Shown here piece by piece: positions 2,716 through 60,466 of a DNA stretch of 64,000 nucleotides. The first letter of the stretch is position 1, and every line of letters begins with the position of its first letter. Origin of the DNA: an uncultured Pelagibacteraceae bacterium (GTDB taxonomy: Bacteria; Pseudomonadota; Alphaproteobacteria; Pelagibacterales; AG-422-B15); the NCBI GenBank assembly GCA_902521655.1, contig CABYSM010000003.1:15297-79296 (forward strand), read 5' to 3'. A program made the position numbers and the translations under genes. The notes under the pieces are model-generated. The model was given only the letters and a program-made list of their open reading frames with translations. It had not been told where the DNA came from and searched no databases.

Positions 2716-3335
2716 CTCTCTCACTTTATCCAGCTTTCTTTATTTTTGCATTAATAATGGTTACAACGCCTGGACCTGCCAATCTGCTATTAATGAGTTC
2801 TGGAGCCCAGCACGGATTATATAAATCATTACCTTTTGTTGCGGGCGTTACTTTCGGAAAACTTTTTTTAACCATTGGGCTTGGATTTGGATTTTTGTCT
2901 TTATTAAATTCTAACCCATTTATAATTAATTTAATTAAAATTGCTGGAACGGGTTACATTTGCTGGTTGTCATATAAGATTATGTTCCTAAACCTAAAGC
3001 CAACTTCTAAGACAGAATTAGAAAGTATACCCAACTTTTTTAATGGTCTTTTAGTGCATCCCCTCAATCCTAAAGGGTGGGCTATGGTGATCGCCGCCTA
3101 TACTCAATTCACTTCTTTTGGAAGTGCAAGCCTAACTTCAAACTGGGCACTTGAAGTTTTAATTATAGCTTCAACATTCTTTTTAATACAATCAGTTTCC
3201 CACTCAGTATGGTGCTGGGCAGGAAGTCTCATTTTTAATTTTTTGAATCAAAAAAATCTTTTGCGTCAATCTATAGTTATTATTTTAGCAGTGCTAACAG
3301 TAGGTACTGTTATTTATAGTAACTTTTTTATCTAA
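2712..3335 (+). CDS. LysE/RhtB-family amino-acid exporter
   Basis: 207 aa with 5-6 TM segments and N-terminal TPGPANLL, typical of the LysE family. It overlaps the pdxA stop by 4 nt. Confidence 0.7.
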   Translation: MTLSLYPAFFIFALIMVTTPGPANLLLMSSGAQHGLYKSLPFVAGVTFGKLFLTIGLGFGFLSLLNSNPFIINLIKIAGTGYICWLSYKIMFLNLKPTSKTELESIPNFFNGLLVHPLNPKGWAMVIAAYTQFTSFGSASLTSNWALEVLIIASTFFLIQSVSHSVWCWAGSLIFNFLNQKNLLRQSIVIILAVLTVGTVIYSNFFI

Positions 3336-4092
3336 TTTTTTTTAAACTATTTTTTTCCACTGACTCACTAAAGCTTGCAAATAACTTTTTGGAAAAATCA
3401 TCAGTAGTCGCAGAATATTCAGGATGCCACTGTACGCCAAAAAAATATCCACTATAACCAGACAAACTGATTGCCTCTACTGTCTCATCTTTAGCAACTC
3501 CTTCAGCAACTAATTCGTTTGCTAATTCGTCAATTCCTTGTGTATGTAATGAATTTACCTCGATCGTCGGAGTGCCTGCTAATTTTTCAAATTTACCATT
3601 TTCTTTAAAATACACTTCATGCTGTTTAGAAAATTGTATATCAGGATCATCAGACTCTGGGCATCGGTGATCCATTCTGCCTGGTACCTCATGAATATCT
3701 GCAAACAGTGAACCTCCCATGGCAACATTAACTTCTTGAAAACCTCTGCATATTGCAAGCATAGGTATCTCATTTTGAAATATAAAATCAATCATTGGCA
3801 GTACTGTCTTATCTCTGTCAATATCTAATGGTTCAACAATTTTATCTTTATTATAAAATTCTGGATAAACATTTGAAAGGCTTCCAGTTAACAAAACTCC
3901 ATCAAATTTACGAAGTGTGTCTCTATAATCTACACTTGATCCAAATGCAGGAAGTATAACCGGTATACAGCTGGTAGCTTCAGAAACAGCTTTAATATAA
4001 TTGGTTCCAGATGCGTGATAAGTTCGGTGCAACTCCTCTTTCTTAATTACATCTGCAAAAACTGCAATAAGTGGCTTATTTTGGGTGTCCAT
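3328..4092 (-). CDS. Class-I glutamine amidotransferase-like / peptidase C26 hydrolase (PuuD-like gamma-glutamyl-amide hydrolase)
   Basis: 254 aa with nucleophile elbow LAICRGFQ and GVQWHPE (Cys-His pair of C26/GATase-1). Confidence 0.75.
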   Translation of the reverse strand: MDTQNKPLIAVFADVIKKEELHRTYHASGTNYIKAVSEATSCIPVILPAFGSSVDYRDTLRKFDGVLLTGSLSNVYPEFYNKDKIVEPLDIDRDKTVLPMIDFIFQNEIPMLAICRGFQEVNVAMGGSLFADIHEVPGRMDHRCPESDDPDIQFSKQHEVYFKENGKFEKLAGTPTIEVNSLHTQGIDELANELVAEGVAKDETVEAISLSGYSGYFFGVQWHPEYSATTDDFSKKLFASFSESVEKNSLKKIR

Positions 4093-4141
4093 AAAAGAAA
4101 TTAGTTTACTAGTATTACTATAATATCATATAACAATTTTA

Positions 4142-5347
4142 ATGGTTATTAATATTCAAAATAAAGAAACAGAAATAAAATCTCTTTCTGCTTGGGATGA
4201 TGTTCTTAATTTAGATGATCAGCTTTCAGCTGAAGAAAAAATATTGCAATCAACTGTGCGAGCATACTGTAAAGAAAAATTGCTCCCAAGAATAATTGAT
4301 GACAATAGAAATGAGAATTTTAGCAGGGAAATCTTTACTGAAATGGGAGAACTAGGACTTCTAGGATCGTACTTAGACGGCTATGGATGTGCGGGAAGTA
4401 ATTATGTCTCTTACGGACTAATTACTCGTGAGATAGAAAAAATCGACAGCGCATACCGATCTATAATGTCAGTGCAAACAAGCCTGGTAATGTACCCTAT
4501 ACATAAATTTGGAAGCAATGAACAAAAAGAACATTATCTACCGAAACTAGCAAAAGGAGAATTTATAGGTAGTTTTGGATTAACCGAACCTGATGCTGGT
4601 AGTGATCCAGGCGCCATGAAAACGAAAGCAGTAAAAGTAAAAGGTGGATATGAACTAAATGGAACAAAAACATGGATCAGTAATGCGCCTCATGCTGATG
4701 TGATAATTATTTGGGCTAAGGATGAAGAAAATGTAATTAGAGGTTTCATTGTTGATAGAGAGTCAAAAGGTCTCTCCACTCCGAAGATTGAAGGAAAATT
4801 GTCGCTAAGGGCATCGGCAACAGGACAAGTAATTATGGAAAATGTATTTTGCCCTGAAGATAAAATTTTACCTAAAACAACAGGTTTAAGTGGACCTTTT
4901 CAATGTTTAAATAGTGCCCGTTATGGAATTTCGTGGGGTGCAATTGGAGCAGCTGAATTTTGTCTGGCGACTGCAAGGCAATATGCTCTAGATAGAAAAA
5001 TGTTTGGGAAGCCAATTGCCGGGACACAGTTGGTTCAGTCTAAATTAGTAGATATGCAAACAGAAATTGCATTAGGGTTAGAGGCTGCATTAAGAGTCGG
5101 ACGCCTTATGGATAAAGGGCAATCTGATAGCAATATGGTAAGCTTAATTAAAAGAAATAATGTTTCTAAAAGTTTGGATATATGTCGTAACGCCAGAGAT
5201 ATTTTAGGTGGCAACGGTATTTCAGATGAGTATCATGTCATGAGACATATGGTTAACTTAGAAACTGTAAAAACCTATGAAGGAACTCACGATGTTCACA
5301 CATTAATAATGGGACGGAATTTAACAGGTATTCAGGCATTTAAATAA
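4142..5347 (+). CDS. gcdH: Glutaryl-CoA dehydrogenase (acyl-CoA dehydrogenase family)
   Basis: 401 aa with [16 protein letters not shown] and a C-terminal [14 protein letters not shown] typical of GCDH-type ACADs. Confidence 0.8.
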
Positions 5348-5351
5348 AATT

Positions 5352-6719
5352 ATGGCATATCTAAATAGAACTACTAAACAATGGCAGGAGATTGATACCA
5401 AACATCACCTCCATCCTTTTACTGACTATAAGTCTCTTGCTGAAGAAGGTAGTATCATTGTAACAAAAGCAGACGGCGTTCATCTGACCACATCTGATGA
5501 TAAGCAGCTATTGGATGCAATGTCTGGGCTTTGGTGTGTTAATGTGGGCTATGGCCGAAAAAATCTTGCTGAAGTTGCCTACAAGCAAATGCAAGAGCTT
5601 CCATATTATAATTCTTTTTTTAAAACTGCTACGCCTCCATCAATCGAGCTAGCAAGAGAATTAGCAGAGTTAAGTCCCCATGATCTAAATCATGCATTCT
5701 TTTCATCAAGCGGTTCAGAAGCCAACGACACAGTTGTGAGAATGGTGAGGAGATATTGGGATCTTAAAGGTAAGCCAAACAAGAAAACTTTTATAAGTAG
5801 AGAGTTTGCATACCATGGCAGTACAATGACAGGTATGAGCCTTGGTGGGATGACTGCAATGCATTCACAAGGTGATATGATGCCAGGTTTTGAGCATGTT
5901 TTACCACCATATTGGTACAAATACGGAAACGAAATGTCCCAAGATGATTTTGGAATTTTTGCAGCAAACAAAATTGAAGAGAAGATTAATGAAATAGGCG
6001 CTGATAATGTGGCGGCATTTATTGGTGAGCCAATCCAAGGTGCAGGTGGTGTAATCATTCCTCCTGATTCATATTGGCCTAGGGTCCAAGAAATCTGCAA
6101 TCAGTATGATATCCTTCTTGTAGTTGATGAGGTTATCTGTGGCTTTGGAAGAACAGGAAACTGGTTTGGATCTGATACATATAATATCAAGCCCGATATA
6201 ATCACAATGGCTAAGGGTATAACATCAGGCTACATACCGCTATCAGGCATCATGATTGGTGATCGCGTTAGTGATACAATTATTAATGAAGGTGGTGAGT
6301 TTTATCATGGTTATACGTATTCAGGTCATCCAGTAGCTTGTGCAGTAAGTCTTGAGAATTTAAAAGTTATAAAAGAAGAAAATCTTATCGAGCAGTCAAG
6401 TCAGGTGTCTGTCTATTTAGAGCAGCAAATGCGTGAGATTGAAAAGCACCCGCTAGTTGGAGAAGTCAGAATGAAAAGTTTTATAGGAGCTGTAGAATTG
6501 GTTAAAGATAAAGAGAAGATGGAAATGTTTGAGGACACGGGTGTTGTTGGAACAATTTGCAGAGATTACTGTATTGAAAATGGTTTAGTGATGAGAGCTG
6601 TGAGGGATGGAATGATTTTTTGCCCACCGCTAATTTTTAATAATTCCCATGTAGACGAATTATGTGAAAAGCTTAAAAAATCTTTAGATCAAACACATAA
6701 TCATATTTCTAAATCGTAA
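5352..6719 (+). CDS. Class-III PLP aminotransferase (omega-amine:pyruvate / SpuC-like)
   Basis: 455 aa with AYHGSTMTGMSLGG, DEVICGFGRTGNWFG and PLP-lysine context ITMAKGITSGY. Confidence 0.8.
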   Translation: MAYLNRTTKQWQEIDTKHHLHPFTDYKSLAEEGSIIVTKADGVHLTTSDDKQLLDAMSGLWCVNVGYGRKNLAEVAYKQMQELPYYNSFFKTATPPSIELARELAELSPHDLNHAFFSSSGSEANDTVVRMVRRYWDLKGKPNKKTFISREFAYHGSTMTGMSLGGMTAMHSQGDMMPGFEHVLPPYWYKYGNEMSQDDFGIFAANKIEEKINEIGADNVAAFIGEPIQGAGGVIIPPDSYWPRVQEICNQYDILLVVDEVICGFGRTGNWFGSDTYNIKPDIITMAKGITSGYIPLSGIMIGDRVSDTIINEGGEFYHGYTYSGHPVACAVSLENLKVIKEENLIEQSSQVSVYLEQQMREIEKHPLVGEVRMKSFIGAVELVKDKEKMEMFEDTGVVGTICRDYCIENGLVMRAVRDGMIFCPPLIFNNSHVDELCEKLKKSLDQTHNHISKS

Positions 6720-7147
6720 CTGTAGAACTCATTATCTCTAATGTATCCAAGTGACTCGTAAAGTGTTTGACCAGGCGTGTTTGATTTATTTGTGGAAAGT
6801 TCGATTGAGCCAAATTTATTTTCAGTAGCATAATTTTTAGCAGCATCCATTAACAACTTAGCAATACCTTTTCTTCTATACTCTTCTCTTACAAATAAGT
6901 CATATAGAACAATTTTTTTTCTTACATTCACCGAGTCAAAAGTAGGGTATAATTGGGTGAAACCTGCACAAGTACCCTCTTCTTCATGAAAAAAGATTAT
7001 TGATTCATCATTCTCAAGTCTTTGCTTGATATATTTTTGTGCAATTTCAAGATTTGATTCTTGATTATAGAAGATTCTATACAAATTAAAAACTTCTCCA
7101 ATGATATCGGAGTTTTCTTTAGTAGCTCTTTTAATACTTTCTTTCAT
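6701..7147 (-). CDS. GNAT-family N-acetyltransferase
   Basis: The ORF track gives 6701..7285, but the first 46 codons overlap the upstream MFS gene. The internal ATG at 7147 (MKESIKRATKE...) lies 2 nt after the MFS stop. The acetyl-CoA site is RRKGIAKLLM. Confidence 0.7.
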   Translation of the reverse strand: MKESIKRATKENSDIIGEVFNLYRIFYNQESNLEIAQKYIKQRLENDESIIFFHEEEGTCAGFTQLYPTFDSVNVRKKIVLYDLFVREEYRRKGIAKLLMDAAKNYATENKFGSIELSTNKSNTPGQTLYESLGYIRDNEFYSYDLEI

Positions 7148-7149
7148 TT

Positions 7150-8307
7150 CTAGTTTCTTATAGTTCGATAAATTGAAATCATTAAGAAAATAAAAGTAAA
7201 AAATACAATTGTATATATAAAACCAATAGGACCAAAAATATCCATAACTCTTCCCCCAATCAAAGGACCAATTAATGAACCGCACTCAAAAACCATCACC
7301 AATATTGCCGTTGCGCCCGCAACCTGTGAAGCAGTATATCTTTCTCCCAACATTGTAAGTGATATCGAGAATATTCCACTTGCTGCTCCTCCCCAAATAA
7401 AACAGCTCAATGCCACTAAATAGAAGTTTCCAAGAAAAACACCTATAATTATTGGACAAATAAAAGTACAGAAGACAGCAATATTCATAAGTAGTCTCTT
7501 ATTCATCCTATCAAGTAAAATACCAATTAGCGGCTGGCATATGACACCGCCAACTAACGTAATAGTGACAAACTGAAGAGCAATGTCTTGTGAAAACTGA
7601 TTCTTAATCATAAAGATTGGAAAAAATGACACGAACATAACATCGTCTAATCCACAGAGAATTGCAGCTCCAAAAATAGTTGGGGCAGCTATTATCGTCG
7701 CTAAAATCGGAAGAGACTTTTTCTCAGGCAATTCTTGATCTGCTATATTGAATGTTATGAGAGGAATAATTGCTATAAATGACATTGCTGCAATTACAAT
7801 AAATGGAAGCCATCCCTCAATCCCCGTTAAAGATATAACAAGAGGACCAATTGCAAAGCCAATAATAAATACGGTATTGTATATTGTTACAATTTTCCCC
7901 CTATTTGTATCATCTGCCATTGATAACATCCATGTATCAAAGGCATTCCATGCAAGTGCTCCTGCAAAACCGATAAGAAATCGTATAATAAACCATGCAG
8001 TTAAACTCTCAAATACGGGAAAGGTGAAATATAAAATAATTGTGACAATCTGAGCAATCACAATGGACCTAGACAATCCAATTGTGTGAATGATAATAGG
8101 AGTAATTCTAACAAATAAAATTACCGCCAACGGTTGGGCTACAACATTCAAACCGATCTGTGTATTGCTATAGCCTCTTGATTCAAGTATTAGAGATAAT
8201 AAGGGAATAAGTGTTCCTAGTTTTATGCCAATAATGAGTGCACATAAAAATAAAACAATATAAGTTTTATAGTTACTTCCAAGTATTGATTGAAAAGATG
8301 AAATCAC
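7150..8307 (-). CDS. MFS transporter
   Basis: 385 aa with about 12 TM segments. It overlaps the upstream TetR gene by 4 nt. Confidence 0.75.
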   Translation of the reverse strand: MISSFQSILGSNYKTYIVLFLCALIIGIKLGTLIPLLSLILESRGYSNTQIGLNVVAQPLAVILFVRITPIIIHTIGLSRSIVIAQIVTIILYFTFPVFESLTAWFIIRFLIGFAGALAWNAFDTWMLSMADDTNRGKIVTIYNTVFIIGFAIGPLVISLTGIEGWLPFIVIAAMSFIAIIPLITFNIADQELPEKKSLPILATIIAAPTIFGAAILCGLDDVMFVSFFPIFMIKNQFSQDIALQFVTITLVGGVICQPLIGILLDRMNKRLLMNIAVFCTFICPIIIGVFLGNFYLVALSCFIWGGAASGIFSISLTMLGERYTASQVAGATAILVMVFECGSLIGPLIGGRVMDIFGPIGFIYTIVFFTFIFLMISIYRTIRN

Positions 8308-8948
8308 ACAAACCGTTTTTCATCTGTATAAATATTTTTAAAGTATTTTTTTACTAGTCCTTTACAAAATACGTGTGAGTACATTTTAGGATCAAATAAA
8401 ATTCTTTGCCATAACCCATCTACCATTGAGAGATAAGTCTCACTTATTTCTTTTGGGGTAAGAAAAGATTGATTATTTAAAATATTTACTTCTTTAATTA
8501 ACTTTTCCATCTGAGATGAATATATTTCATCTTGTTTTTGACAGATTGATAAATAAGAAGGACGGAACTTTACTTCACTATAGAAAGATACCCAGACTGC
8601 AATTTTATTTCTATTTGCAATTTTACTACTGAAATCATTTTCGATTATCTTAATCACTCTACCAACAGGATCTAAGTTATTATCTTCAAATATTCGTTGC
8701 CAAGAATTTTTATATTCGTCTGACAGAAATTTTAGTGAACTTAGTAAAAGATTTTCTTTAGATTTAAATCTAAAATTTGCATAGCCTTGTGATACCATTG
8801 CTTTTTTAGCAACTTGTGCAATCGTAGTATCTCCAAGACCTCTTTTAGCTATAGTTTCAATTGTTGCATCAATCAGTTTTTGATGATTGATTGAGAATTC
8901 TTGATCTTCAAGTTGATGATCACTAATTTTTTTGGGACTTATATTCAT
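8304..8948 (-). CDS. TetR-family transcriptional regulator
   Basis: N-terminal HTH is IETIAKRGLGDTTIAQVAKKAMVSQGYANFRFKSKENLL. I prefer the ATG at 8948 (MNISPKK) over the GTG at 8963 used by the ORF track. It is the first gene of a TetR-MFS-GNAT string and is divergent from the 9044 operon. Confidence 0.8.
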   Translation of the reverse strand: MNISPKKISDHQLEDQEFSINHQKLIDATIETIAKRGLGDTTIAQVAKKAMVSQGYANFRFKSKENLLLSSLKFLSDEYKNSWQRIFEDNNLDPVGRVIKIIENDFSSKIANRNKIAVWVSFYSEVKFRPSYLSICQKQDEIYSSQMEKLIKEVNILNNQSFLTPKEISETYLSMVDGLWQRILFDPKMYSHVFCKGLVKKYFKNIYTDEKRFV

Positions 8949-8990
8949 AAAAGAACCATACACAAAGTTTAATCATATGGGTAGTTTTGT

Positions 8991-9043: not shown

Positions 9044-10672
9044 ATGCCAAAAAATACTCATGATGTAATTGTTGTTGGAGCGGGCCATAACGGGCTTACT
9101 GCAGCTAGTTATATGGCTAAAGCAGGATTAGATGTCGTTGTCCTAGAAAAAAATGATTGGATTGGCGGCGCGGCAGTAAGTCGAGAGCTTTACCCAGGAT
9201 GGAAATATTCAAATTGTTCTTATGTATGTAGTTTATTAAGGCCAGAGATCATGCGGGACTTAGAGCTTTATAAGTATGGGCTACAAATTATCCCATACGA
9301 AGGCAGTGCCACGATGATGAAAAATGGAGATTATTACACTCATTACCATGATCATGACATGACTATAAATTCTATAAGGCGTCATTCTCATAAAGACGCA
9401 GAAGCATATGAAAGATACAGCCGAGACGTTCTTAGACAATGTAAAATTATTAAGCCTCTACTAAAAATGACACCGCCTGACTTAACATCATTTAAACCAA
9501 AAGATTTATTTGGTGCCCTCGAGTTTGCGAAACATTTTGCTGCAAAAGATGAACTAGATGGTCTTGGAGAAAAAGAGATTTATGAAACTATTCGTTTCTA
9601 TACGATGAGTATTAGAGATTACTTAGAGGAATATTTTGAAAGTGAAATAACTAAAGCCCATCTTGCTGGCAGTGCAATCATAGGCACAGCTTTGGGTCCA
9701 TGTTCGCCAGGATCAGCTTATGTGTTGCTGCACCATTATATGGGTGAAGTTGATGGATCAGTTGGCTCATGGGGCTATGCAAGAGGTGGCATGGGATCTA
9801 TTACTCAAGCAATGATGGGTTGTTTAAAAGACCATGGTGGTGAAGTAAAGCCTAGCAGCGAAGTAACTAACGTTATTACAAAAAATGGAAAAGCAATTGG
9901 GGTCGCAACACAAAATGGTGATGAATATTACGCAAAGAAAATTGTATCCAATCTTGATGTCAAACGAACATTTCTAAAGATTACTGAGGAGAAGGATCTT
10001 CCTGATGATTTTGTGAGAAGCGTGAAAAATTTCAAGATAAGGGGGTCATCTGGTAAATTAAATATTGCATTAGATGCATTACCAGATTTTCCATGCATAC
10101 CTGAAGGCGATCCAGGGGGTGGTGGAGACATGCACTTCACAGAAACAATTGAAGAGATGGAAGGCGCTTATGACGATTGGAAAAGGGGAGAATGGTCACG
10201 AAATCCTTATGTAGATATGTGTATTCCATCCAAAAGTGATCCGACAATGGCTGAGCCTGGTAAGCATTATATGTCTGTATTTATTCAGTATGTACCATTC
10301 AACCTCGCAAATGGCGGATGGAATGAAGAGAGAAAGCAAGAGTTTGGAAGACATATTGTTGATTGTATTTCAGAGTTTTCACCTAACTTTAAAGACTTAA
10401 TTAATCATTATGAGGTTCGTACACCACTAGAATTGGAAAACGAGGTTGGTCTGACAGAGGGTAATATTTTTCAAGGAGAGTTGACCATGGACCAATTAAT
10501 GTTCAATAGGCCAGTCCCAGGATATGCACAGTATCGGACTCCATTAAAAAATATGTATATATGCAGTTCTTCAACACATCCAGGCGGAGGTGTAATGGGT
10601 GCCCCAGGAGCTAACGCTGCTCGTGAAGTTTTACTAGACATGAACGTTCCACAAAAAGGAAATTATTATTAA
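9044..10672 (+). CDS. NAD(P)/FAD-dependent oxidoreductase, amine-oxidase / CrtI (phytoene desaturase) fold
   Basis: 542 aa with N-terminal dinucleotide fold VIVVGAGHNGLTAASYMAKAGLDVVVLEK and C-terminal HPGGGVMGAPG. Confidence 0.7.
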   Translation: MPKNTHDVIVVGAGHNGLTAASYMAKAGLDVVVLEKNDWIGGAAVSRELYPGWKYSNCSYVCSLLRPEIMRDLELYKYGLQIIPYEGSATMMKNGDYYTHYHDHDMTINSIRRHSHKDAEAYERYSRDVLRQCKIIKPLLKMTPPDLTSFKPKDLFGALEFAKHFAAKDELDGLGEKEIYETIRFYTMSIRDYLEEYFESEITKAHLAGSAIIGTALGPCSPGSAYVLLHHYMGEVDGSVGSWGYARGGMGSITQAMMGCLKDHGGEVKPSSEVTNVITKNGKAIGVATQNGDEYYAKKIVSNLDVKRTFLKITEEKDLPDDFVRSVKNFKIRGSSGKLNIALDALPDFPCIPEGDPGGGGDMHFTETIEEMEGAYDDWKRGEWSRNPYVDMCIPSKSDPTMAEPGKHYMSVFIQYVPFNLANGGWNEERKQEFGRHIVDCISEFSPNFKDLINHYEVRTPLELENEVGLTEGNIFQGELTMDQLMFNRPVPGYAQYRTPLKNMYICSSSTHPGGGVMGAPGANAAREVLLDMNVPQKGNYY

Positions 10673-12189
10673 TGTCTGACAATTCGAATTTTGATGCCAT
10701 CATAATCGGTGGAGGTCATAATGGATTGGTATGCGCAAATATCCTTGCTAGAAAAAATAAAAGAGTACTAATTTGTGAAGCACGAAAAGAGTGTGGTGGC
10801 ATGGTCAACAATGAAATCACAAACTATGTTCCTCCAGTAACAACAGCTGTTTCAAGTTCGTTAGGAGGTATGCAAGTAAATTATTTGCCAAAGACTACAA
10901 TCGCTTTATCTGAAACTGGGCAGCACATCCGACTAGTTGGCAATCAACACATTGACCATAAATCTATCTCAACATTTTCATCGCACGATGCTGACCGTTT
11001 TAATGATTTTCATGAGAAAATGTCAAAATTCTCAAAAACTCTGGGCTCCTTCATGATGGCATCACCTCCACGTATTATGAACAACAGCTTTTCTGACTAT
11101 TTTAAGCTCTTCAAGCTTGGATTAAATGTTAGGCTACTAGGAAAGAAAAATTTCAATGAGTTTGCCAGGATGATTGGTCTAAATATAGCTGATGAACTCG
11201 AAGATAATTTTGAAAATACATTACTTCAAGGGTTGATTGCACATGACTCAGTCATAGGGTCAAATTTAGGCCCACGTTCACCAGGCTCTCTCATAAACTT
11301 ATTATATAGAATGGCTATCCACAATAATTCATTATTTGGTGGCATATTTCAGATAGAGGGAGGCAACGATCAATTCACTAAACATCTAATTGAAAAATGT
11401 AAAAGCAATAATGTAGAAATAAAGACCTCAGCGTCTGTTAAAAATTGTATTGTTGAAGATGACTGTGCTGTAGGCGTTGAACTAATTAATGGTGAAAAGG
11501 TGTATGCTAAGAAAATTATTTCTAATGTAGATCCACGTTCAACATACTTTTCATTACTTGGCTCTCAAAACCTTGATACTGACGTAAAAAGGAAAATTAA
11601 GCATCATCGCTCCAAAGGACGAGTTGCTAAACTTATTTTAGATTTAAACAAGTTACCTAGTTTTAACAATTGTGATGATATTGATCTTGATAGCAGAATG
11701 GTTGTTGCTCCATCTATTGATTACATTGAAGAAACATTTAACCCTAGTAAGTTTGACAAGCTTTCACTAGAGCCAACACTTGAAATTTGTGTAAAGAAAG
11801 ACTCTGATCAAAATCCAAAATTAGACATTCAAGTTCAATATGCACCATATAAAACTGATCAAGGGTGGGAAAATGTAAAAGAAAATTATATTGAATCTAT
11901 AATCAAAATCATTAGTAAATATGCTCCCAATATTAATGAATGCATCGAGCATAAGAAATTAATAACCCCTGACGATATTGAATTAGAATATAATGTATCA
12001 GGTGGACACTGGCATCACGGCGAGATCCAAATTGATCAGCTTTTTATGATGCGCCCAATTCCAGGAGCCTCACAGTATAAAACGCATTTGGATGGTCTTT
12101 TTATGTGTGGCGCAGGAACACATCCAGGTGGTGGCTTAACCGGTATTTCAGGCAAAAATGCAGCCAAAGCAGTTTTGGACGATTTTTAA
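10672..12189 (+). CDS. NAD(P)/FAD-dependent oxidoreductase, amine-oxidase / CrtI fold (paralogue of 9044)
   Basis: 505 aa with IIIGGGHNGLVCANILA and C-terminal HPGGGLTGISG. Its start overlaps the upstream stop (TAATG at 10670-10674). Confidence 0.7.
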   Translation: MSDNSNFDAIIIGGGHNGLVCANILARKNKRVLICEARKECGGMVNNEITNYVPPVTTAVSSSLGGMQVNYLPKTTIALSETGQHIRLVGNQHIDHKSISTFSSHDADRFNDFHEKMSKFSKTLGSFMMASPPRIMNNSFSDYFKLFKLGLNVRLLGKKNFNEFARMIGLNIADELEDNFENTLLQGLIAHDSVIGSNLGPRSPGSLINLLYRMAIHNNSLFGGIFQIEGGNDQFTKHLIEKCKSNNVEIKTSASVKNCIVEDDCAVGVELINGEKVYAKKIISNVDPRSTYFSLLGSQNLDTDVKRKIKHHRSKGRVAKLILDLNKLPSFNNCDDIDLDSRMVVAPSIDYIEETFNPSKFDKLSLEPTLEICVKKDSDQNPKLDIQVQYAPYKTDQGWENVKENYIESIIKIISKYAPNINECIEHKKLITPDDIELEYNVSGGHWHHGEIQIDQLFMMRPIPGASQYKTHLDGLFMCGAGTHPGGGLTGISGKNAAKAVLDDF

Positions 12190-28713: not shown

Positions 28714-28770
28714 GCATAATTTAAATTTTTTTATCAGTTTAAATTAAATGATCACGGGATATACTTAGTT

Positions 28771-28920
28771 ATGGAATTTTTGACATTTATTGCGGTTTGT
28801 ATCTTAATCTATCTTGTATATTTAATCCGTCAGGATTTTAAGGACCATTCAGTGCGTATTGAAAGTCAAATGCAGAGAGTTACTGAAGTGGTCATCAAAA
28901 GCCAAGACAAAGACGAATAA
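28771..28920 (+). CDS. Small single-pass membrane protein (49 aa), unannotated
   Basis: Hand translation gives MEFLTFIAVCILIYLVYLIRQDFKDHSVRIESQMQRVTEVVIKSQDKDE*. It is below the ORF-track size cut-off and has a hydrophobic N-terminal helix followed by a charged tail. Confidence 0.4.
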   Translation: MEFLTFIAVCILIYLVYLIRQDFKDHSVRIESQMQRVTEVVIKSQDKDE

Positions 28921-28923
28921 TAT

Positions 28924-29049
28924 TTATTTTTTCTTACCCCAACTATTTCTTTTTCTATTCCTTATTAATGGCGGATAAGTACCAGTTGATAAGAAGATCT
29001 TGATAAATCTCCACTGTAAGAACCATATTTTTTTTAAAACCTGAAACAT
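28924..29049 (-). CDS. Possible small basic protein (41 aa)
   Basis: Hand translation of the minus strand gives MFQVLKKIWFLQWRFIKIFLSTGTYPPLIRNRKRNSWGKKK*. It is convergent with the 49-aa ORF, 3 nt apart. There is no other support. Confidence 0.2.
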   Translation of the reverse strand: MFQVLKKIWFLQWRFIKIFLSTGTYPPLIRNRKRNSWGKKK

Positions 29050-29117
29050 TTTAGGACTCTTGTTTTAATTAATTATTTTAATTCAATATTTTGGCAAATT
29101 CATTATAAATAATCTTT

Positions 29118-53557: not shown

Positions 53558-54352
53558 CTAAAGATAAATTAATATAAGCGTTCCTATAACAATTCGGTAG
53601 ATAACAAATGGTTTCATAGTATTTTTTTTCAACCACTTAAGTAAATAGTCGATTGAAAGATAAGCTACAAAAAAAGAGATAAAAAATCCAAAACAGCTAG
53701 AAGAAATATTAGTACTTGTTGGTGACTCTATGAGTTTAAGAATTGGTATAGCAGAAGAAATTAAAATTACTGGAATTGATAGTAAAATGGAAAGCTTTGC
53801 AGCTTCAATTCTATTTAAACCAATTATTCTTGAACCTGAATACACAACTCCCGCTCTACTTGCCCCAGGTATAATCGCTAGTATTTGAAAAAGACCAATG
53901 ATGAGAGCACTTTTTATTGATAATCTCTCAATGCCTTTAGTGTTGGCATTAGTGTAACTATCAGAATAATAGAGAAGAAGTCCAAAAATTATTGTTGCTA
54001 GTCCAACAATTTTTATATTCCTTAAAATATCAGCATAACCTGTAAGAAAAAGTAAGCCTCCAACAATCACAACAGGCAATGTTCCAACAATGAGACAGAA
54101 AGCTAAATTTTTCTCATCCTTACTTAATTTGATGCTGAATGGTAAAAGCAGAAAAACTAATACTTTAATATCATTTCTAAAATAGATGATGACAGCCAAA
54201 AGAGAGCCCAAATGCAGACTTACATCCAACATCAGACTTTCGGGAATACTCATTATTTCAGCGGCAATTAATAAATGTCCGGAACTTGAAATAGGCAAAA
54301 ACTCTGAAATACCCTGAATAATTCCTAATAGTAGTATTGGTAAAAAAGCCAT
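53558..54352 (-). CDS. uppP: Undecaprenyl-diphosphate phosphatase
   Basis: 264 aa with 8 TM segments, an N-terminal GISEFLPISSSGHL and PGASRAG. Confidence 0.9.
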   Translation of the reverse strand: MAFLPILLLGIIQGISEFLPISSSGHLLIAAEIMSIPESLMLDVSLHLGSLLAVIIYFRNDIKVLVFLLLPFSIKLSKDEKNLAFCLIVGTLPVVIVGGLLFLTGYADILRNIKIVGLATIIFGLLLYYSDSYTNANTKGIERLSIKSALIIGLFQILAIIPGASRAGVVYSGSRIIGLNRIEAAKLSILLSIPVILISSAIPILKLIESPTSTNISSSCFGFFISFFVAYLSIDYLLKWLKKNTMKPFVIYRIVIGTLILIYL

Positions 54353-54406
54353 AAGAATTAAAAAAATACTGTTTTACGCCATTTAGGCAAGAAAAACTTA
54401 AACTGT

Positions 54407-54421
54407 GTCATACTATATGAC
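54407..54421. promoter_or_regulatory. Palindrome GTCAT-actat-ATGAC (site 1) upstream of gltD
   Basis: Read directly from the sequence. It can also be written as 6-bp arms GTCATA/TATGAC with a 3-nt spacer. Its core and spacing match site 2. Confidence 0.4.
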
Positions 54422-54476
54422 TATTATTATATATTTTAAATGTTATAAAAAGTTTAACTAGACGAGAGGAATCCAA

Positions 54477-54499
54477 ATATGTCATGAATTATGACATAT
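54477..54499. promoter_or_regulatory. Palindrome ATATGTCAT-gaatt-ATGACATAT (site 2), 10 nt upstream of the gltD ATG
   Basis: Perfect 9-bp arms with a 5-nt spacer. The core is GTCAT-N5-ATGAC, as in site 1, and the site centres are 74 bp apart. Confidence 0.45.
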
Positions 54500-54509
54500 A
54501 GAAGACGTT

Positions 54510-55949
54510 ATGCTTAAATTTACTAATTTAAATCAAGAATACCCTGAAAAAAGGTCCTCAGAAAATAGAAAAAAAGATTTTGGGGAGATTTATGAGAACT
54601 TTATAAAGAACAGCGCCAAAGAGCAGTCAAGTCGTTGTTCTCAATGCGGGGTTCCTTACTGCACCGTCCATTGTCCCTTGCATAATCATATTCCTGATTG
54701 GCTTAAGCTTGCGGCGGAGGACCGACTTGAAGAGGCTTACCAAATATCTTCGAGCACAAATAATATGCCAGAGATATGCGGAAGAATTTGCCCGCAAGAT
54801 CGATTATGTGAAGGAAACTGTGTTATTGAGCAATCAGGGCATGGTTCGGTCACTATTGGATCAGTAGAAAAATATCTAACTGACAATGCGTTCGAAAAGG
54901 GATGGATTAAACCGATCAAAGTTCCTGAGTACTTAGAAAAAGAAAATAGCATTGGTATCATTGGTGCGGGTCCCGCAGGTCTCGCTGCCGCTGAGGAATT
55001 AAGAAAAAGGGGTTACAAAATTGATGTATATGATCGTTATGACCGCGCTGGAGGTTTACTGATTTATGGAATCCCAAATTTTAAACTGGAAAAAGATATT
55101 GTTCAAAGAAGAATGAAATACCTTGAGGACTCAAATATTAAGATTCATCTAAATACTGAAATTGGAAAAGATATTCATTTTTTGGATCTTCAAAAAAAAC
55201 ATGACGCTGTATTAATTGCAACGGGAGTCTATAAAGCGAGAGAAATTTCCCTAGAAGGCGATGCATCCGAAGTAGTTCCTGCTTTGGATTTTCTAACTGC
55301 ATCAAACCGAAAAGGCTTGGGAGATAGCTTAGAGGCTTTTGATAATGGATTGCTCAACGCCAAAGGTAAGAATGTAGTTGTAATTGGTGGAGGGGATACA
55401 GCTATGGACTGCGTAAGAACAGCTATTAGACAGGAGGCAAAATCCGTTAAGTGTCTTTACCGAAGAGATAAAGAGAATATGCCTGGCTCGGCCAGAGAAG
55501 TTAACAATGCTGAGGAAGAGGGAGTAGAATTTTTATGGCAATCTCTCCCAAAAAAAATTGAAAGAAATAATAATAGTAGCCTCTTAAATTGTATAAAAAT
55601 GAAGTTAAGTGAACCAGAGTCCGATGGCAGAAGAATACCTCAAGAGATAGCAGGTTCTGATTTTGAATTAGAGACCGATTTAGTAATTGCTGCTCTGGGT
55701 TTTTCTCCTGAAAATTTGCCAAAAATGTTTGAAGTCGAAGAACTTCCAGTCACAAAATGGGGTACGGTTCGTGTAGGATTTAATACCATGATGACCAGTC
55801 TTGAGGGTGTATTTGCTGCAGGAGATATTGTCAGAGGAGCTTCCCTGGTAGTTTGGGGAATCAGAGATGGGCGAGATGTAGCAAATTCTATTCATGATTA
55901 TATTGAAGAAAAAAATAATGCAAAAAATCTAAATATTAAAGCATCATGA
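54510..55949 (+). CDS. gltD: Glutamate synthase (NADPH) small subunit
   Basis: 479 aa with Fe-S Cys clusters CSQCGVPYC and CPQDRLCEGNC, plus the dinucleotide folds GAGPAGLAAA and VIGGGDTAMDC. Confidence 0.95.
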   Translation: MLKFTNLNQEYPEKRSSENRKKDFGEIYENFIKNSAKEQSSRCSQCGVPYCTVHCPLHNHIPDWLKLAAEDRLEEAYQISSSTNNMPEICGRICPQDRLCEGNCVIEQSGHGSVTIGSVEKYLTDNAFEKGWIKPIKVPEYLEKENSIGIIGAGPAGLAAAEELRKRGYKIDVYDRYDRAGGLLIYGIPNFKLEKDIVQRRMKYLEDSNIKIHLNTEIGKDIHFLDLQKKHDAVLIATGVYKAREISLEGDASEVVPALDFLTASNRKGLGDSLEAFDNGLLNAKGKNVVVIGGGDTAMDCVRTAIRQEAKSVKCLYRRDKENMPGSAREVNNAEEEGVEFLWQSLPKKIERNNNSSLLNCIKMKLSEPESDGRRIPQEIAGSDFELETDLVIAALGFSPENLPKMFEVEELPVTKWGTVRVGFNTMMTSLEGVFAAGDIVRGASLVVWGIRDGRDVANSIHDYIEEKNNAKNLNIKAS

Positions 55950-58900
55950 CAAATGAATTAAAAAGATATTTAAAAAATAAAAAAAATTTAGAGGATGCAT
56001 TTTTATATAATCCGGGACATGAACATGACTCTTGCGGCGTAGGTTTTGTAGCATCTACAGATGGCAAACAAAGACGTGAAGTTGTCCAAGGTGGTATTGA
56101 CGCCCTCAAGGCTGTATGGCATCGAGGTGCAGTTGATGCTGACGGAAAGACTGGTGATGGAGCAGGCATACTTACTCAGATACCTTATAATTTTTTTGAC
56201 GATGAGATAGCTAAGACAGGCCATGAAAAAAGAGATGAACCTCTCGGTATTGGCATGATGTTCCTTCCAAGGAATGATTATGCCGCACTTGAAAAATGTA
56301 GAACAATTATTGAGTCCGAACTGCTTGATCATGGTTATTACATCTATGGTTGGAGACAGGTTCCAATAAATAACGGTGTAATTGGGGAAAAAGCAAACTC
56401 TACTCGCCCTGAGATCGAGCAAGTTATGTTCGTAAATACTATAGAAAGAGATAAAGAATTTGATTTTGCAAAAGAGTTATACCTTGTTAGAAGAAGGCTA
56501 GAAAAAAGAATAGCAAAACAGCAAATCAATGGTTTCTATGTTTGTTCATTGAGTTTCGAGTCAATTATCTACAAAGGACTTTTCTTAGCCGAACAACTAT
56601 CAATTTTTTATCCTGACTTAGCGAATGAAGAATTTATTTCATCTTTTGCCGTATTTCATCAAAGGTACTCAACAAATACTTTTCCGTCCTGGGGTTTAGC
56701 ACAACCTTTTAGAATGTTAGCTCATAACGGTGAAATTAATACAATATCAGGAAATACTAACTGGATGAGAAACCACCAAACACGAATTACTACTGAAATT
56801 TTTGGAGATGACAGTGAGCAAGTTAAGCCAATTATTGAAAAGAATGTTTCAGACTCATCAGCCTTAGACGCAGCTTTTGAGCTATATGTAAGGGCAGGAA
56901 GATCAGTTCCTCTTGTAAAAACTCTTTTAATACCAGAAGCCTGGTCAAAAAGAAGTGAGCTTATGCCGATTGAGCATAGAAATATGTATGAATTTTCAAA
57001 TGCTATTGTTGAACCTTGGGATGGTCCTGCTGCAATAGCAGCAGTTGATGGCAATTGGATCGTCGGAGGTATGGACAGAAATGGGTTGCGGCCTATGAGA
57101 TACTCAATTTCTCGAGATAATCTCATATATGTAGGTTCTGAGACAGGGATGGTGACAGTTGATGAATCTAAAATAATAGAAAAAGGTAAACTAGGACCAG
57201 GTGAAATTATTGGTATCAATCTTAAAGAAGGTAAAATATTTAGAGATCATGAAATGAAGGAACGATTGGCATCTGAAGCACCATATGAAGAGTATGTCAA
57301 AAAAATAATACGATTAGACAAACGAGTTAAAATTTCTAAAGAATCAACGGTTACTGATCAAGCCAAGTTAAGAAAGAAAATGATTGCTGCTGGGTATACG
57401 ATGGAGGAACTTGAACTCATCCTGCACCCAATGGTTTCGGATGCGAAAGAATCTACTGGCAGCATGGGTGATGATACGCCAATAGCGGTATTGTCGGATA
57501 AGTACAGACCATTGTCACACTTTTTTAGACAAAAATTTAGCCAAGTTACAAATCCTCCCATCGACAGCCTAAGAGAGCAAAGTAGAATGAGTTTAAAAAC
57601 GAGATTTGGAAATCTTCAGGATATTTTGAATCCAAATCCATATGAAGAAAATGTTTTTGTAATAGATAGTCCTTTTATTACTAATGGCTTCTTCAAAAAA
57701 ATTTCTATACGTGGTCAACAGACAACAACAAATATTGATTGTACTGTAGAAAAAAAGTCATTTGATTTAAAAAAAGAAATTAAGCGTATTCAATTAGAAG
57801 CTGAAACTGCGGTTCTAAGTGGAAAGTCTCACATAGTCTTATCAGATATTAATGCCGATGAAGAAAAGATTGCATTACCATTAATTCTCATTACTGCTGC
57901 AGTTCATACAGATCTTACTCGAAAAGGAATAAGATCATTTGTCTCGTTACATGTGAGATCTTCAGAATGCATTGATACTCATTACTTCGCTGTATTAATT
58001 GGTGTTGGGGCAACAACTGTGAATCCTTATTTAGCGCAAGACTGTATCTATGAGAGGCACCAGAAAGGGTTATTTGGAAATATATCCTATGAAGAATGTG
58101 TTGATCGATACAAAAAAGCAATTGATCAAGGACTCCTCAAAGTAATGTCTAAGCTTGGTATATCTGTAATTAGTGCATATAGAGGAGGTTTTAATTTTGA
58201 AGCAGTAGGTCTAAGTCGATCTACAGTAAATGAATATTTTCTTGGTGTTCAAAGTCGAATGTCAGGAATAGGTCTTACTGGAATTGAAAAAAAACTTACT
58301 GAACTTCATGATTACGCTTATTCAGATACTGTTCAAACACTGCCTATAGGTGGAATATACCGATATCGAAGTGGAGGAGAGACACACGCTTATGAAGGAA
58401 AATTAATACACCTTCTTCAAACAGCGGTCGCTGAGGACTCTTATGATATGTATAAAAAATACTCTAGCTCAATGGGGAATTTTGCACCAATCAACATAAG
58501 AGATCTTCTTGAATTCAAAGAGGCAGAGACTGATCTAGATCTTTCTGAAGTTGAATCTATAACGTCAATTAGAAAAAGATTTGGAACAGGAAGTATGTCC
58601 CATGGTGCTTTATCAAAAGAAGCCCATGAAACTCTTGCAATTGCAATGAATAGAATTGGAGGAGCATCTTGTTCGGGTGAAGGCGGTGAATCGATTGAAC
58701 GATCATATCCACTTGAGAACGGAGATAGCGCAAATTCAAGAGTTAAACAAGTAGCTTCTGCAAGATTTGGGGTCACTACAGAATATCTTAACAATTGTGA
58801 AGAAATTGAAATTAAGATTGCACAAGGGGCAAAGCCTGGAGAGGGAGGCCAATTACCAGGTTTTAAAGTCACAGCAGAAATTGCTAAATTAAGACATTCA

Positions 58901-60466
58901 ACTCAAGGAGTAACATTAATCAGTCCTCCTCCACACCACGACATCTATTCTATCGAAGATCTTGCTCAGCTTATTTATGATTTGAAGCAGGTAAACTCAA
59001 ATGCGAGAGTATGTGTTAAATTAGTTGCTTCTTCTGGAATAGGAACAATTGCTGCTGGAGTTGCTAAGGCAAAAGCTGATGTAATCCTAATTTCTGGTCA
59101 CAATGGTGGCACTGGGGCGAGCCCACAAACAAGTATTAAATATGCAGGTATCCCCTGGGAAATGGGCTTGACTGAAGTAAATCAAGTCCTGACATTAAAT
59201 GGCTTGCGTCAGAATGTAGTTCTCCGAACAGACGGTGGGATAAAGACGGGTCGAGACGTAGTCATCGCTGCGATGATGGGAGCTGAAGAGTTTGGAGTTG
59301 GCACGACATCTTTAGTGGCTATGGGATGTATTATGGTTAGGCAATGCCATTCAAATACATGTCCAGTAGGTGTTTGTACGCAAGATGATGATTTGAGAGC
59401 AAGGTTTTCAGGCAGTCCAGAAAAAGTAGTTAATCTGTTTAGCTTTATAGCAGAAGAGGTTAGGGAAATTTTAGCAGACTTAGGTGTGAAAAGTTTAAAT
59501 GATGTTATTGGAAGAACAGATTTATTGTATCAAATATCAAGGGGATCAATGCATTTAGATGATTTAGATTTGAATTCACTTTTAATTCAAGCTGAGAAGG
59601 ATCCAGATGTTGAGTACTTTAATCACTCTGTAATTAATGATGTAGGCTCTACGCTTGATGAAAAAATTATTCAAGATGCCTCAAAATTTTTACAGACCGG
59701 ACAGAAAACTGAATTAAATTATCCAATTAAAAATACTGATAGAGCGGTAGGTACTAGATTATCATCAACTATTTACCGAACATTCAAAAATACTGAAGTT
59801 AATAAGGAGCACTTGACTATCAATCTCACAGGATCAGCTGGACAATCACTTGGCGCTTTTGGGATTAAAGGTTTAAAAATAAGCCTTTTTGGCGATTCAA
59901 ATGACTATGTTGGAAAAGGGCTATCAGGTGCTACAATTTCAATTAGGCCTCACAAAAATAGTTCTTTGATTAGTAATGAAAATACAATCATTGGAAACAC
60001 TGTACTTTACGGGGCAACGTCTGGTGAATTGTATGCTGCTGGTGAAGCGGGTGAAAGATTTGCTGTTAGAAACTCGGGTGCAACAACGGTAGTGGAAGGA
60101 TGTGGTTCAAATGGATGTGAATACATGACTGGCGGTACTGTTGTAATATTAGGAAAAACAGGAGATAATTTTGGGGCCGGAATGACTGGTGGTATGGCAT
60201 TTATATATGATGAGGATCAAAATTTTAATTTAAGAGTAAATCCAGAGACTTTAATCTTTGATACAATTTCCTCGGATTATTGGACAAATGAGCTTTACCA
60301 AATTATTCTTTGTCATCATCAAAATACTTTAAGTTTGCATGCCAAAAATATATTAGATAATTGGGAAACAGAAAAATTAAAATTCATTCACGTATGTCCG
60401 AAAGAGATAGCCAACATATTAGTTCAACCTCTGGGTTTCGAAAAAAAATTGAAGCAGGTCAATTAA
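55946..60466 (+). CDS. gltB: Glutamate synthase large subunit
   Basis: 1506 aa with an Ntn amidotransferase Cys after a propeptide (EHDSCGVGFVA), FMN/3Fe-4S region and a C-terminal GXGXG beta-helix. It overlaps the gltD stop by 4 nt. Confidence 0.97.
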   Translation: MTNELKRYLKNKKNLEDAFLYNPGHEHDSCGVGFVASTDGKQRREVVQGGIDALKAVWHRGAVDADGKTGDGAGILTQIPYNFFDDEIAKTGHEKRDEPLGIGMMFLPRNDYAALEKCRTIIESELLDHGYYIYGWRQVPINNGVIGEKANSTRPEIEQVMFVNTIERDKEFDFAKELYLVRRRLEKRIAKQQINGFYVCSLSFESIIYKGLFLAEQLSIFYPDLANEEFISSFAVFHQRYSTNTFPSWGLAQPFRMLAHNGEINTISGNTNWMRNHQTRITTEIFGDDSEQVKPIIEKNVSDSSALDAAFELYVRAGRSVPLVKTLLIPEAWSKRSELMPIEHRNMYEFSNAIVEPWDGPAAIAAVDGNWIVGGMDRNGLRPMRYSISRDNLIYVGSETGMVTVDESKIIEKGKLGPGEIIGINLKEGKIFRDHEMKERLASEAPYEEYVKKIIRLDKRVKISKESTVTDQAKLRKKMIAAGYTMEELELILHPMVSDAKESTGSMGDDTPIAVLSDKYRPLSHFFRQKFSQVTNPPIDSLREQSRMSLKTRFGNLQDILNPNPYEENVFVIDSPFITNGFFKKISIRGQQTTTNIDCTVEKKSFDLKKEIKRIQLEAETAVLSGKSHIVLSDINADEEKIALPLILITAAVHTDLTRKGIRSFVSLHVRSSECIDTHYFAVLIGVGATTVNPYLAQDCIYERHQKGLFGNISYEECVDRYKKAIDQGLLKVMSKLGISVISAYRGGFNFEAVGLSRSTVNEYFLGVQSRMSGIGLTGIEKKLTELHDYAYSDTVQTLPIGGIYRYRSGGETHAYEGKLIHLLQTAVAEDSYDMYKKYSSSMGNFAPINIRDLLEFKEAETDLDLSEVESITSIRKRFGTGSMSHGALSKEAHETLAIAMNRIGGASCSGEGGESIERSYPLENGDSANSRVKQVASARFGVTTEYLNNCEEIEIKIAQGAKPGEGGQLPGFKVTAEIAKLRHSTQGVTLISPPPHHDIYSIEDLAQLIYDLKQVNSNARVCVKLVASSGIGTIAAGVAKAKADVILISGHNGGTGASPQTSIKYAGIPWEMGLTEVNQVLTLNGLRQNVVLRTDGGIKTGRDVVIAAMMGAEEFGVGTTSLVAMGCIMVRQCHSNTCPVGVCTQDDDLRARFSGSPEKVVNLFSFIAEEVREILADLGVKSLNDVIGRTDLLYQISRGSMHLDDLDLNSLLIQAEKDPDVEYFNHSVINDVGSTLDEKIIQDASKFLQTGQKTELNYPIKNTDRAVGTRLSSTIYRTFKNTEVNKEHLTINLTGSAGQSLGAFGIKGLKISLFGDSNDYVGKGLSGATISIRPHKNSSLISNENTIIGNTVLYGATSGELYAAGEAGERFAVRNSGATTVVEGCGSNGCEYMTGGTVVILGKTGDNFGAGMTGGMAFIYDEDQNFNLRVNPETLIFDTISSDYWTNELYQIILCHHQNTLSLHAKNILDNWETEKLKFIHVCPKEIANILVQPLGFEKKLKQVN

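Follow-up and report, generated by a model that had tools for sequence, protein, structure and literature searches.

Two palindromes in the intergenic region between uppP and gltD of a SAR11 bacterium are non-random. Their arms, position and spacing are conserved, and they form part of a gltD operator family that extends across the Alphaproteobacteria. Based on the comparison of related sequences, both palindromes are probably DNA operators of one homodimeric helix-turn-helix transcription factor, which would bind them cooperatively and control gltDB, likely by repression. The region was analyzed within a 64-kb stretch of DNA (hereafter the window), for which a preliminary description of the two sites was available.

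Two Palindromes in the uppP-gltD Intergenic Region

The gltD gene (54510-55949, plus strand; Pfam Fer4_20 and Pyr_redox_2) encodes the small subunit of NADPH glutamate synthase, and gltB (55946-60466, plus strand; Pfam GATase_2, Glu_syn_central, Glu_synthase and GXGXG) encodes the large subunit. On the best reading, gltD-gltB (54510-60466, plus strand) is an operon under the control of the palindromes. The divergent neighbor of gltD is uppP (BacA; 53558-54352, minus strand; Pfam BacA). The GltD protein of the window (GC ∼34%) shares 97% identity with its counterpart in the Pelagibacteraceae single-cell genome AG-430-P03, and the earlier guess of a SAR11-like genome proved right, the window belonging to a SAR11 (Pelagibacteraceae) subclade. 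The 157-nt gap between uppP and gltD had been described as the largest gap of the window without an ORF, but the region 28714-29117 is longer (404 nt, with ORFs of at most 49 aa only; no Rfam match at the gathering threshold). The uppP-gltD gap is the largest divergent (minus/plus) intergenic region of the window.

The coordinates and sequences of both sites given in the preliminary description were found to be exact when re-read from the DNA. The core of site 1, GTCATACTATATGAC, occupies 54407-54421 (center 54414), and site 2, ATATGTCATgaattATGACATAT, occupies 54477-54499 (center 54488) with perfect 9-bp arms. The centers are separated by 74 bp, and site 2 ends 10 nt before the ATG of gltD (54510). 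As strandless operators, the two sites were delimited as O1 (site 1; CTG-TGTCA-TACTATA-TGACT-ATT, 54403-54425), lying at ∼-42 from the predicted gltD start and at ∼-58 from the predicted uppP start, and O2 (site 2; ATA-TGTCA-TGAATTA-TGACA-TAT, 54477-54499), lying at ∼+32 from the predicted gltD start with its center 22 nt before the ATG.

The window has two copies of the motif GTCAT-N5-ATGAC, and both lie in the uppP-gltD gap. The mean expected from dinucleotide shuffles was 0.06, and one of 100 shuffles reached two occurrences; a frequency matching chance, which had been named as grounds for giving up the motif, was not seen in the window, where the excess is ∼30-fold. When one mismatch was allowed in the relaxed core, 18 occurrences were observed against 17 expected, which is no enrichment. 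With a position-weight matrix built from relatives, O2 scored 28.2 bits, the best value in the window, and the other site scored 19.1 bits; the next-best match in the window (11.2 bits) lies inside coding sequence. In ∼85 kb of clade sequence scanned with the matrix, only the gltD pair reached at least 16 bits.

Conservation of the Sites and of a Predicted Promoter in the Subclade

Relatives obtained by protein search form a subclade with a 479-residue GltD of 77-82% identity (contigs L081-L099), and the footprint alignment comprised 13 distinct sequences from about nine lineages, with GltD 77-99% identical. Both sites were kept in all 13 sequences as wGTCA-N7-TGACw, while the N7 spacers varied freely. 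The O1 form among these relatives is TTA-wGTCA-N7-TGACT-ATTAT, in which GTCA and TGACTATT are invariant; the O2 form is ATA-wGTCA-N7-TGACA-TAw, in which TA-GTCA and T-TGACATA are invariant. In all lineages, the centers of O1 and O2 lie 94-96 and 19-22 nt from the ATG, respectively. The spacing between the centers is 74-75 bp in every member of the clade, although the DNA between the sites is strongly diverged. Phylogenetic footprinting, proposed earlier as a check, thus found both sites in every relative examined.

A candidate extended -10 element for gltDB, TGtTATAAA, was predicted at 54441-54449 (plus strand), which implies a transcription start at ∼54456. Its TGnTATA part (54441-54447) is invariant in 13 of 13 relatives amid diverged sequence, and the element TGnTATAAr stands at a fixed distance of 18-19 nt after O1. 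If TGnTATA is the extended -10 element, as predicted, the start at ∼54456 places O1 at ∼-42 and O2 at ∼+32. The two sites, which are of the same class, then straddle the predicted promoter, and their spacing is conserved in whole helical turns. The earlier suggestion of paired operators with cooperative binding or looping is consistent with the comparative data as a whole, namely the invariant arms, the variable spacers, the 74-75-bp spacing and the class-wide gltD family described below.

Within the predicted 5' UTR, a purine-rich element resembling a Shine-Dalgarno (SD) sequence, GAGAGGAA (54464-54471, plus strand), stands just before O2 and ∼40 nt before the gltD ATG, and it is kept as GAGAGGAG or GAAAGGAG in most relatives. 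An upstream ORF using this GAGAGG element was considered and rejected: its ATG would fall in the left arm of O2 and is missing from the AGTCA lineages. Since lineages with ATAAGTCA have no ATG, the ORF is not conserved. On the other side of the gap, next to the uppP start, a block TTTaCGCCAwwTAGGCAAG (54373-54391, minus strand) is also preserved, T21-A38 of the alignment being almost all invariant. Read on the minus strand, it gives TTGCCT-N16-TATTTT, and it is likely to be the uppP promoter or a further protein-binding site. A resembling TCAATTTGGCAAG stands upstream of amt in the same clade (L223, 9918-9930), a match that carries little weight because it was found post hoc.

The gltD Upstream Palindrome in the Alphaproteobacteria

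A 23-bp palindrome, ATAGGTnA-N7-TnACCTAT, was found upstream of gltD across the Alphaproteobacteria. Among 77 alphaproteobacterial gltD upstream regions, 52% matched at least 12 of the 14 specified positions, against 0.1% of 2069 control windows taken from the same loci. The palindrome forms an AT-rich island in genomes of 55-69% GC (Sphingomonadales, Pseudokordiimonas, a Rhizobium MAG and others). In other SAR11, it reads (A)GGTCA-N7-TGACC(T) and precedes the aligned gltD start by 66-80 nt. Elsewhere in the Alphaproteobacteria, gltD is preceded by uppP, an epimerase gene or fumC and not by a regulator gene. The palindrome tracks gltD rather than uppP: it stays with gltD where uppP is co-oriented (L063) and where fumC takes the place of uppP (L060), and uppP is therefore unlikely to be the primary target. 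A search of the literature found no published description of the motif.

By position, O1 is the local form of this site. O2 has the complete 23-bp architecture of the family, with a symmetric G>T/C>A change. Compared with the family, O2 agrees at 12 of the 14 specified positions and O1 at 8 of the 10 core positions. The family is most conserved in GG/CC at arm positions 4-5 and 19-20 (95% for G5/C19); G5 and C19 are kept in the clade of the window, whereas position 4 and its symmetric partner are T or A in the clade and G in the family (wGTCA versus GGTCA). Some other SAR11 species have intermediate AGTCA forms. The predicted position of the site center is ∼-62 in high-GC genomes, ∼-52 in most SAR11 and ∼-42 in the clade of the window, with roughly one helical turn between each. 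In the high-GC genomes, the site at ∼-62 is followed by a T-tract and a -35-like GTGACw, and no significant second site was found upstream of gltD in high-GC Alphaproteobacteria, which have a single site only.

In 23 other SAR11 species, a second site, ATAGGTCAR-CAAnnnC-CACCTAA, was found inside gltD in codons 7-14, where it encodes IGQQxPPK. It occupies 4019-4041 in each of the loci L002, L005, L007, L009, L012-L015, L017, L018, L021-L023, L025, L026, L030, L032-L035 and L037-L039. Read as codons, the site is ATA GGT CAR CAA nnn CCA CCT AA; ATA, GGT, CCA and CCT are frozen in 23 of 23 species, and their usage elsewhere in gltD is 31, 36, 54 and 37%, respectively. Conserved residues near the site vary synonymously, and lineages without the in-gene site have LKQETPEK at the same position. 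The distance from the in-gene to the upstream site is either 96-98 or 106-109 bp, with no intermediates, and the two classes are one helical turn apart. As the operator pair recurs in two forms, SAR11 would therefore have acquired a promoter-flanking pair in two physical forms. Both spacing forms are near whole helical turns, which would fit cooperative binding or looping. A further conserved 'site' at +158 in some SAR11 was rejected: it overlaps the codons of a Cys-rich Fe-S motif and reflects protein constraint.

Palindrome Loci in Metagenomes and a Candidate Regulator

When metagenomes were scanned for the exact palindrome, 120 loci were obtained, nine or ten of which are gltD/uppP loci. 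The high-GC loci are informative because an AT-rich 23-mer is very unlikely to occur there by chance. In high-GC loci from other Proteobacteria, the gene of one MarR subfamily adjoins the exact palindrome in seven loci and three arrangements: MarR gene, site and class IV aminotransferase gene, with the two genes divergent (L112, L114, L144 and L203); site, NTF2-like gene and MarR gene (L110 and L122); and site and MarR gene (L189). A second wGTCA-N7-TGACA, with the same core as the relaxed core of the window, stands exactly 45 bp away in three of the MarR intergenic regions. The MarR subfamily protein falls below every NCBIfam equivalog cut-off, and its database homologs are named only 'MarR family'. 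From this gene neighborhood in other bacteria, the regulator is probably an uncharacterized MarR-type protein of amino-group metabolism.

Other neighbors of the palindrome are class I/II aminotransferase genes (three loci), LysE/RhtB exporter genes (four loci), NTF2-like genes (six loci, three of them divergent from guaA), an indolepyruvate-ferredoxin oxidoreductase gene with a LysR-type transcriptional regulator (LTTR) gene (two loci), YitT (two loci) and the gene of an AapJ/YhdW-like amino-acid binding protein (one locus with two sites, on an alphaproteobacterial contig of 37% GC). At most of these targets, no more than ∼30 nt separate the site from the start codon, a placement typical of a repressor. 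The AapJ/YhdW-type locus is on the marine contig L179 (37% GC), where palindromes at 4237-4259 and 4381-4403 stand upstream of the gene of this general amino-acid binding protein; YhdW is a transporter protein reported to be induced in nitrogen-limited SAR11.

A MarR homolog was found neither in the window nor in ∼20 kb of additional clade sequence (L220/L223) nor in the 9-kb SAR11 gltD loci. With the MarR sequences as queries, tblastn gave no match in the window or in any of the SAR11 loci. A profile search based on the MarR alignment retrieved close gammaproteobacterial homologs only and is uninformative for SAR11. The low-GC metagenome matches were phage, Bacteroidota-like or non-coding noise and contained no further SAR11 targets.

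Among the low-GC contigs, seven phage contigs with terminase and anti-restriction genes (L102, L132, L139, L155, L190, L195 and L210) carry a perfect family palindrome just after an ORF of 188-200 aa. The palindrome reads ATAGGTCAGTATAACTGACCTAT, or its reverse complement, in five of the seven contigs, and in L155 copies flank the ORF. Pelagiphages have been reported to encode MarR regulators (bioRxiv 10.1101/410191; PMC12753301). Tandem perfect palindromes were also observed, with three copies 92-93 bp apart in L200 (967-1174) and two copies 32-54 bp apart in L117 (253-329), L121 (22-76) and L209 (6955-7022).

Alternative Readings of the Two Sites

Several other readings of the sites were weighed against operators of one, probably MarR-type, regulator. 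The first is that the sites are boxes of a LysR-type activator (T-N11-A) that activates gltDB, like GltC of Bacillus or HdfR of E. coli. The motif GTCA-N7-TGAC includes T-N11-A; the center at ∼-62 in high-GC genomes, followed by the T-tract and the -35-like GTGACw, is the classic position of an LTTR recognition site; and in L106 and L160 the exact palindrome has an LTTR gene beside it. However, this adjacency amounts to one gene pair in two related loci, in which the site is 32 nt before the start codon of the neighbor and not at -65, and adjacency to MarR genes is more frequent (seven loci, three architectures). Moreover, a promoter-straddling pair 74-109 bp apart differs from the layout of recognition and activation sites, the window sites lying at ∼-42 and ∼+32. 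The window holds no LTTR gene, nor was one seen in the vicinity of gltD, and none adjoins gltD in any locus. The dedicated regulators GltC (B. subtilis) and HdfR (E. coli) likewise have a dyad upstream of the glutamate synthase operon, and HdfR binds gltBD and induces it directly in E. coli (PMC2984483); here, the T-N11-A dyad of the window is not accompanied by an LTTR gene linked to gltD, and the operator layout differs. Taken together, a LysR-type activator is an improbable explanation of the sites.

In the second reading, site 2 would form an RNA hairpin in the leader of gltD and so restrict access of the ribosome, in a translational or riboswitch-like manner, with site 1 unrelated or a separate DNA site; such a hairpin had been suggested for the proximal palindrome in the preliminary description. 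In the window, O2 folds as a 10-bp stem of -9.0 kcal/mol (29-mer z = -3.8), with 10 nt between its end and the AUG. In Negativicutes, a candidate RNA of the gltD leader has a hairpin that would occlude the RBS (PMC8632094), and in nitrogen-limited HTCC1062 the levels of GltBD protein and mRNA are not coupled (PMC3870248). Against this, relatives differ in stability, with values between -9.0 and -3.4 kcal/mol and z = -1.1 in L098, and the fold of the whole leader has z = -0.87. Across the 13 aligned sequences, six of the nine stem pairs are invariant. At pair 135-151, 5 of 13 sequences have an A.A mismatch without compensation, and in 9 of 13 the innermost pair does not form. Both partners of a pair changed together only once, in a single lineage, and no meaningful covariation was found. 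The stem includes neither the AUG nor an SD sequence, and its arms are found again at site 1, which is predicted to be untranscribed, and at DNA sites of many unrelated genes. An Rfam scan of the gap returned no family, at the gathering threshold or even at E = 10. The gltD motif RNA (SRC-18-1) of Selenomonadales and Veillonellales (PMC8632094) likewise belongs to a gltD leader, with a hairpin proposed to occlude the RBS, but it comes from a different phylum and is a larger structured RNA, whereas the leader of the window is ∼54 nt long, without covariation or Rfam match. Selection would therefore act on the arm sequence and not on pairing. The translational hairpin did not hold up on these grounds and is very unlikely to be what maintains site 2; we read the hairpin, which will still form in the mRNA of the window, as a by-product.

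A MerR-family nitrogen regulator resembling TnrA or GlnR was considered as a third possibility. The TGTCA-N7-TGACA of site 2 agrees letter for letter, in the same 5-7-5 geometry, with the TnrA box of Bacillus, TGTNA-N7-TNACA. For repression of gltAB, TnrA binds downstream of the promoter, and for activation it binds at ∼-50; a nitrogen-assimilation target and a repressing downstream site would be features shared with the Bacillus system. TnrA/GlnR proteins are not known from phyla other than the Firmicutes. Despite the match at O2, the consensus of the family is GGTnA-N7-TnACC with ATA/TAT flanks and not TGTNA, a MerR-type gene, unlike MarR genes, was found beside none of the 120 palindrome loci, and amt carries no site. 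The lack of PII and NtrBC in SAR11 (PMC3870248) speaks for this reading, but a regulator of this family is a remote prospect.

Finally, it is scarcely credible that the palindromes arose by chance or merely reflect the structure of an AT-rich promoter region, without a specific ligand: AT-rich intergenic DNA yields many short palindromes and the one-mismatch core is not enriched, but the exact motif is, its arms, positions and spacing are invariant across lineages with only ∼78% GltD identity, and the motif persists as a conserved AT-rich island in high-GC genomes, so that the conservation data already contradict this reading.

The motif was also compared with binding patterns of other regulators. 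GTCA-N7-TGAC fits neither the NtrC pattern (TGCACC-N5-GGTGCA), as had been noted in the preliminary description, nor the NtrX pattern (GCA-N9-TGC; PMC7240162). The motifs of IscR (types I and II), of the Iron-Rhodo box and of VimR (ATTTTCAA) do not fit either.

Relation to Known Two-Operator Systems

For operators of one dimeric regulator, the nearest model in layout is OE/OI of gal in E. coli, where the GalR repressosome uses two operators ∼10 helical turns apart with the promoter between them. One gal operator may lie inside the first structural gene, and repression needs same-face phasing and looping. The SAR11 layouts (-42/+32, -52/+45 and -52/+56) follow the gal logic, and an HU/IHF-type gene is encoded in the 64-kb window. 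The systems differ in regulator family (LacI/GalR versus, probably, MarR) and in motif, and looping at gltDB is suggested by spacing alone.

MarR-family operators can also be paired, as with the two sites in marO. The 5-bp arms and AT-rich flanks of the palindrome are suited to a winged-helix dimer; two sites in a control region, a site adjoining the regulator's own gene (seven loci) and a site overlapping the promoter or leader at most targets are in keeping with this family. The subfamily at the palindrome differs from known MarR proteins in having no described function, and its link to gltD and SAR11 is deduced from the comparisons above.

Proposed Mechanism and Nitrogen Physiology

In the mechanism that we propose, O1 would overlap the -35 region of the extended -10 promoter and O2 would lie in the transcribed leader. 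Since 74-75 bp corresponds to about seven helical turns, two dimers can sit on the same face of the DNA and cooperate, and they would probably loop out the core promoter. The most likely outcome would be repression relieved by a metabolite, and the content of the regulon points to amino-group or amino-acid status as the signal. The O1 center at ∼-42 from the predicted start is also the classic position of a class II activator. Because the single site at ∼-62 in high-GC genomes is activator-like, the sign of regulation may differ or be dual.

SAR11 lacks PII, GlnD and NtrBC, the usual regulators of nitrogen assimilation (PMC3870248). In nitrogen-limited HTCC1062, the GltBD proteins increased and the mRNA did not (PMC3870248), and therefore post-transcriptional control also exists. 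The mRNA levels of SAR11 gltB and gltD rise during pelagiphage infection (PMC12753301), so that a transcriptional response of these genes exists, which we count in favor of operators.

The enrichment at other nitrogen genes suggested earlier was not seen at amt of the same clade: the 309 nt upstream of amt (L223, GCA_003282175.1) contain no GTCA-N7-TGAC. Since amt has no site, the clade has no general nitrogen regulon of this motif, or a very small one. In related genomes (L220, 10905-20900, and L223), a branched-chain amino-acid ABC transporter operon, umuDC and the Amt gene lie within ∼10 kb beyond the left edge of the window.

The window also holds a cluster resembling amine/GABA-type catabolism (3328-8963), with genes for a gamma-glutamyl hydrolase-like Peptidase_C26 protein (3328-4092), an acyl-CoA dehydrogenase (4142-5347), a class III aminotransferase (5352-6719), a GNAT acetyltransferase and an MFS transporter, beside a TetR/BetI-type regulator gene (8304-8963). 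The latter is divergent from two FAD amine-oxidase-like genes (9044-12189).

A wider reading, which we hold only tentatively and consider rather unlikely as a whole, is that the palindrome marks an undescribed Proteobacteria-wide regulon under a MarR-family amino-group sensor, that it is the main transcriptional control of glutamate synthase (GOGAT) in SAR11, and that second operators were recruited twice independently. Besides glutamate synthase, such a regulon would take in aminotransferases of classes IV and I/II, LysE exporters, a 2-oxoacid oxidoreductase and general amino-acid uptake, and one of the recruitments would have proceeded by rewriting gltD codons 7-14 under strong selection.

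Of particular interest are the breadth of conservation of the motif, its apparent lack of a published description, the operators in gltD codons of sister lineages and the bearing of the sites on nitrogen control in SAR11. The in-gene operator, with its frozen synonymous sites, is a case of regulatory DNA constraining the N-terminus of a protein. In many Proteobacteria, the palindrome links glutamate synthase, aminotransferases, amino-acid exporters and a MarR-type regulator, which suggests a conserved amino-group regulon. For SAR11, the operator pair at gltDB offers a concrete bait for finding the regulator of nitrogen assimilation and a sequence to seek in metatranscriptomes.
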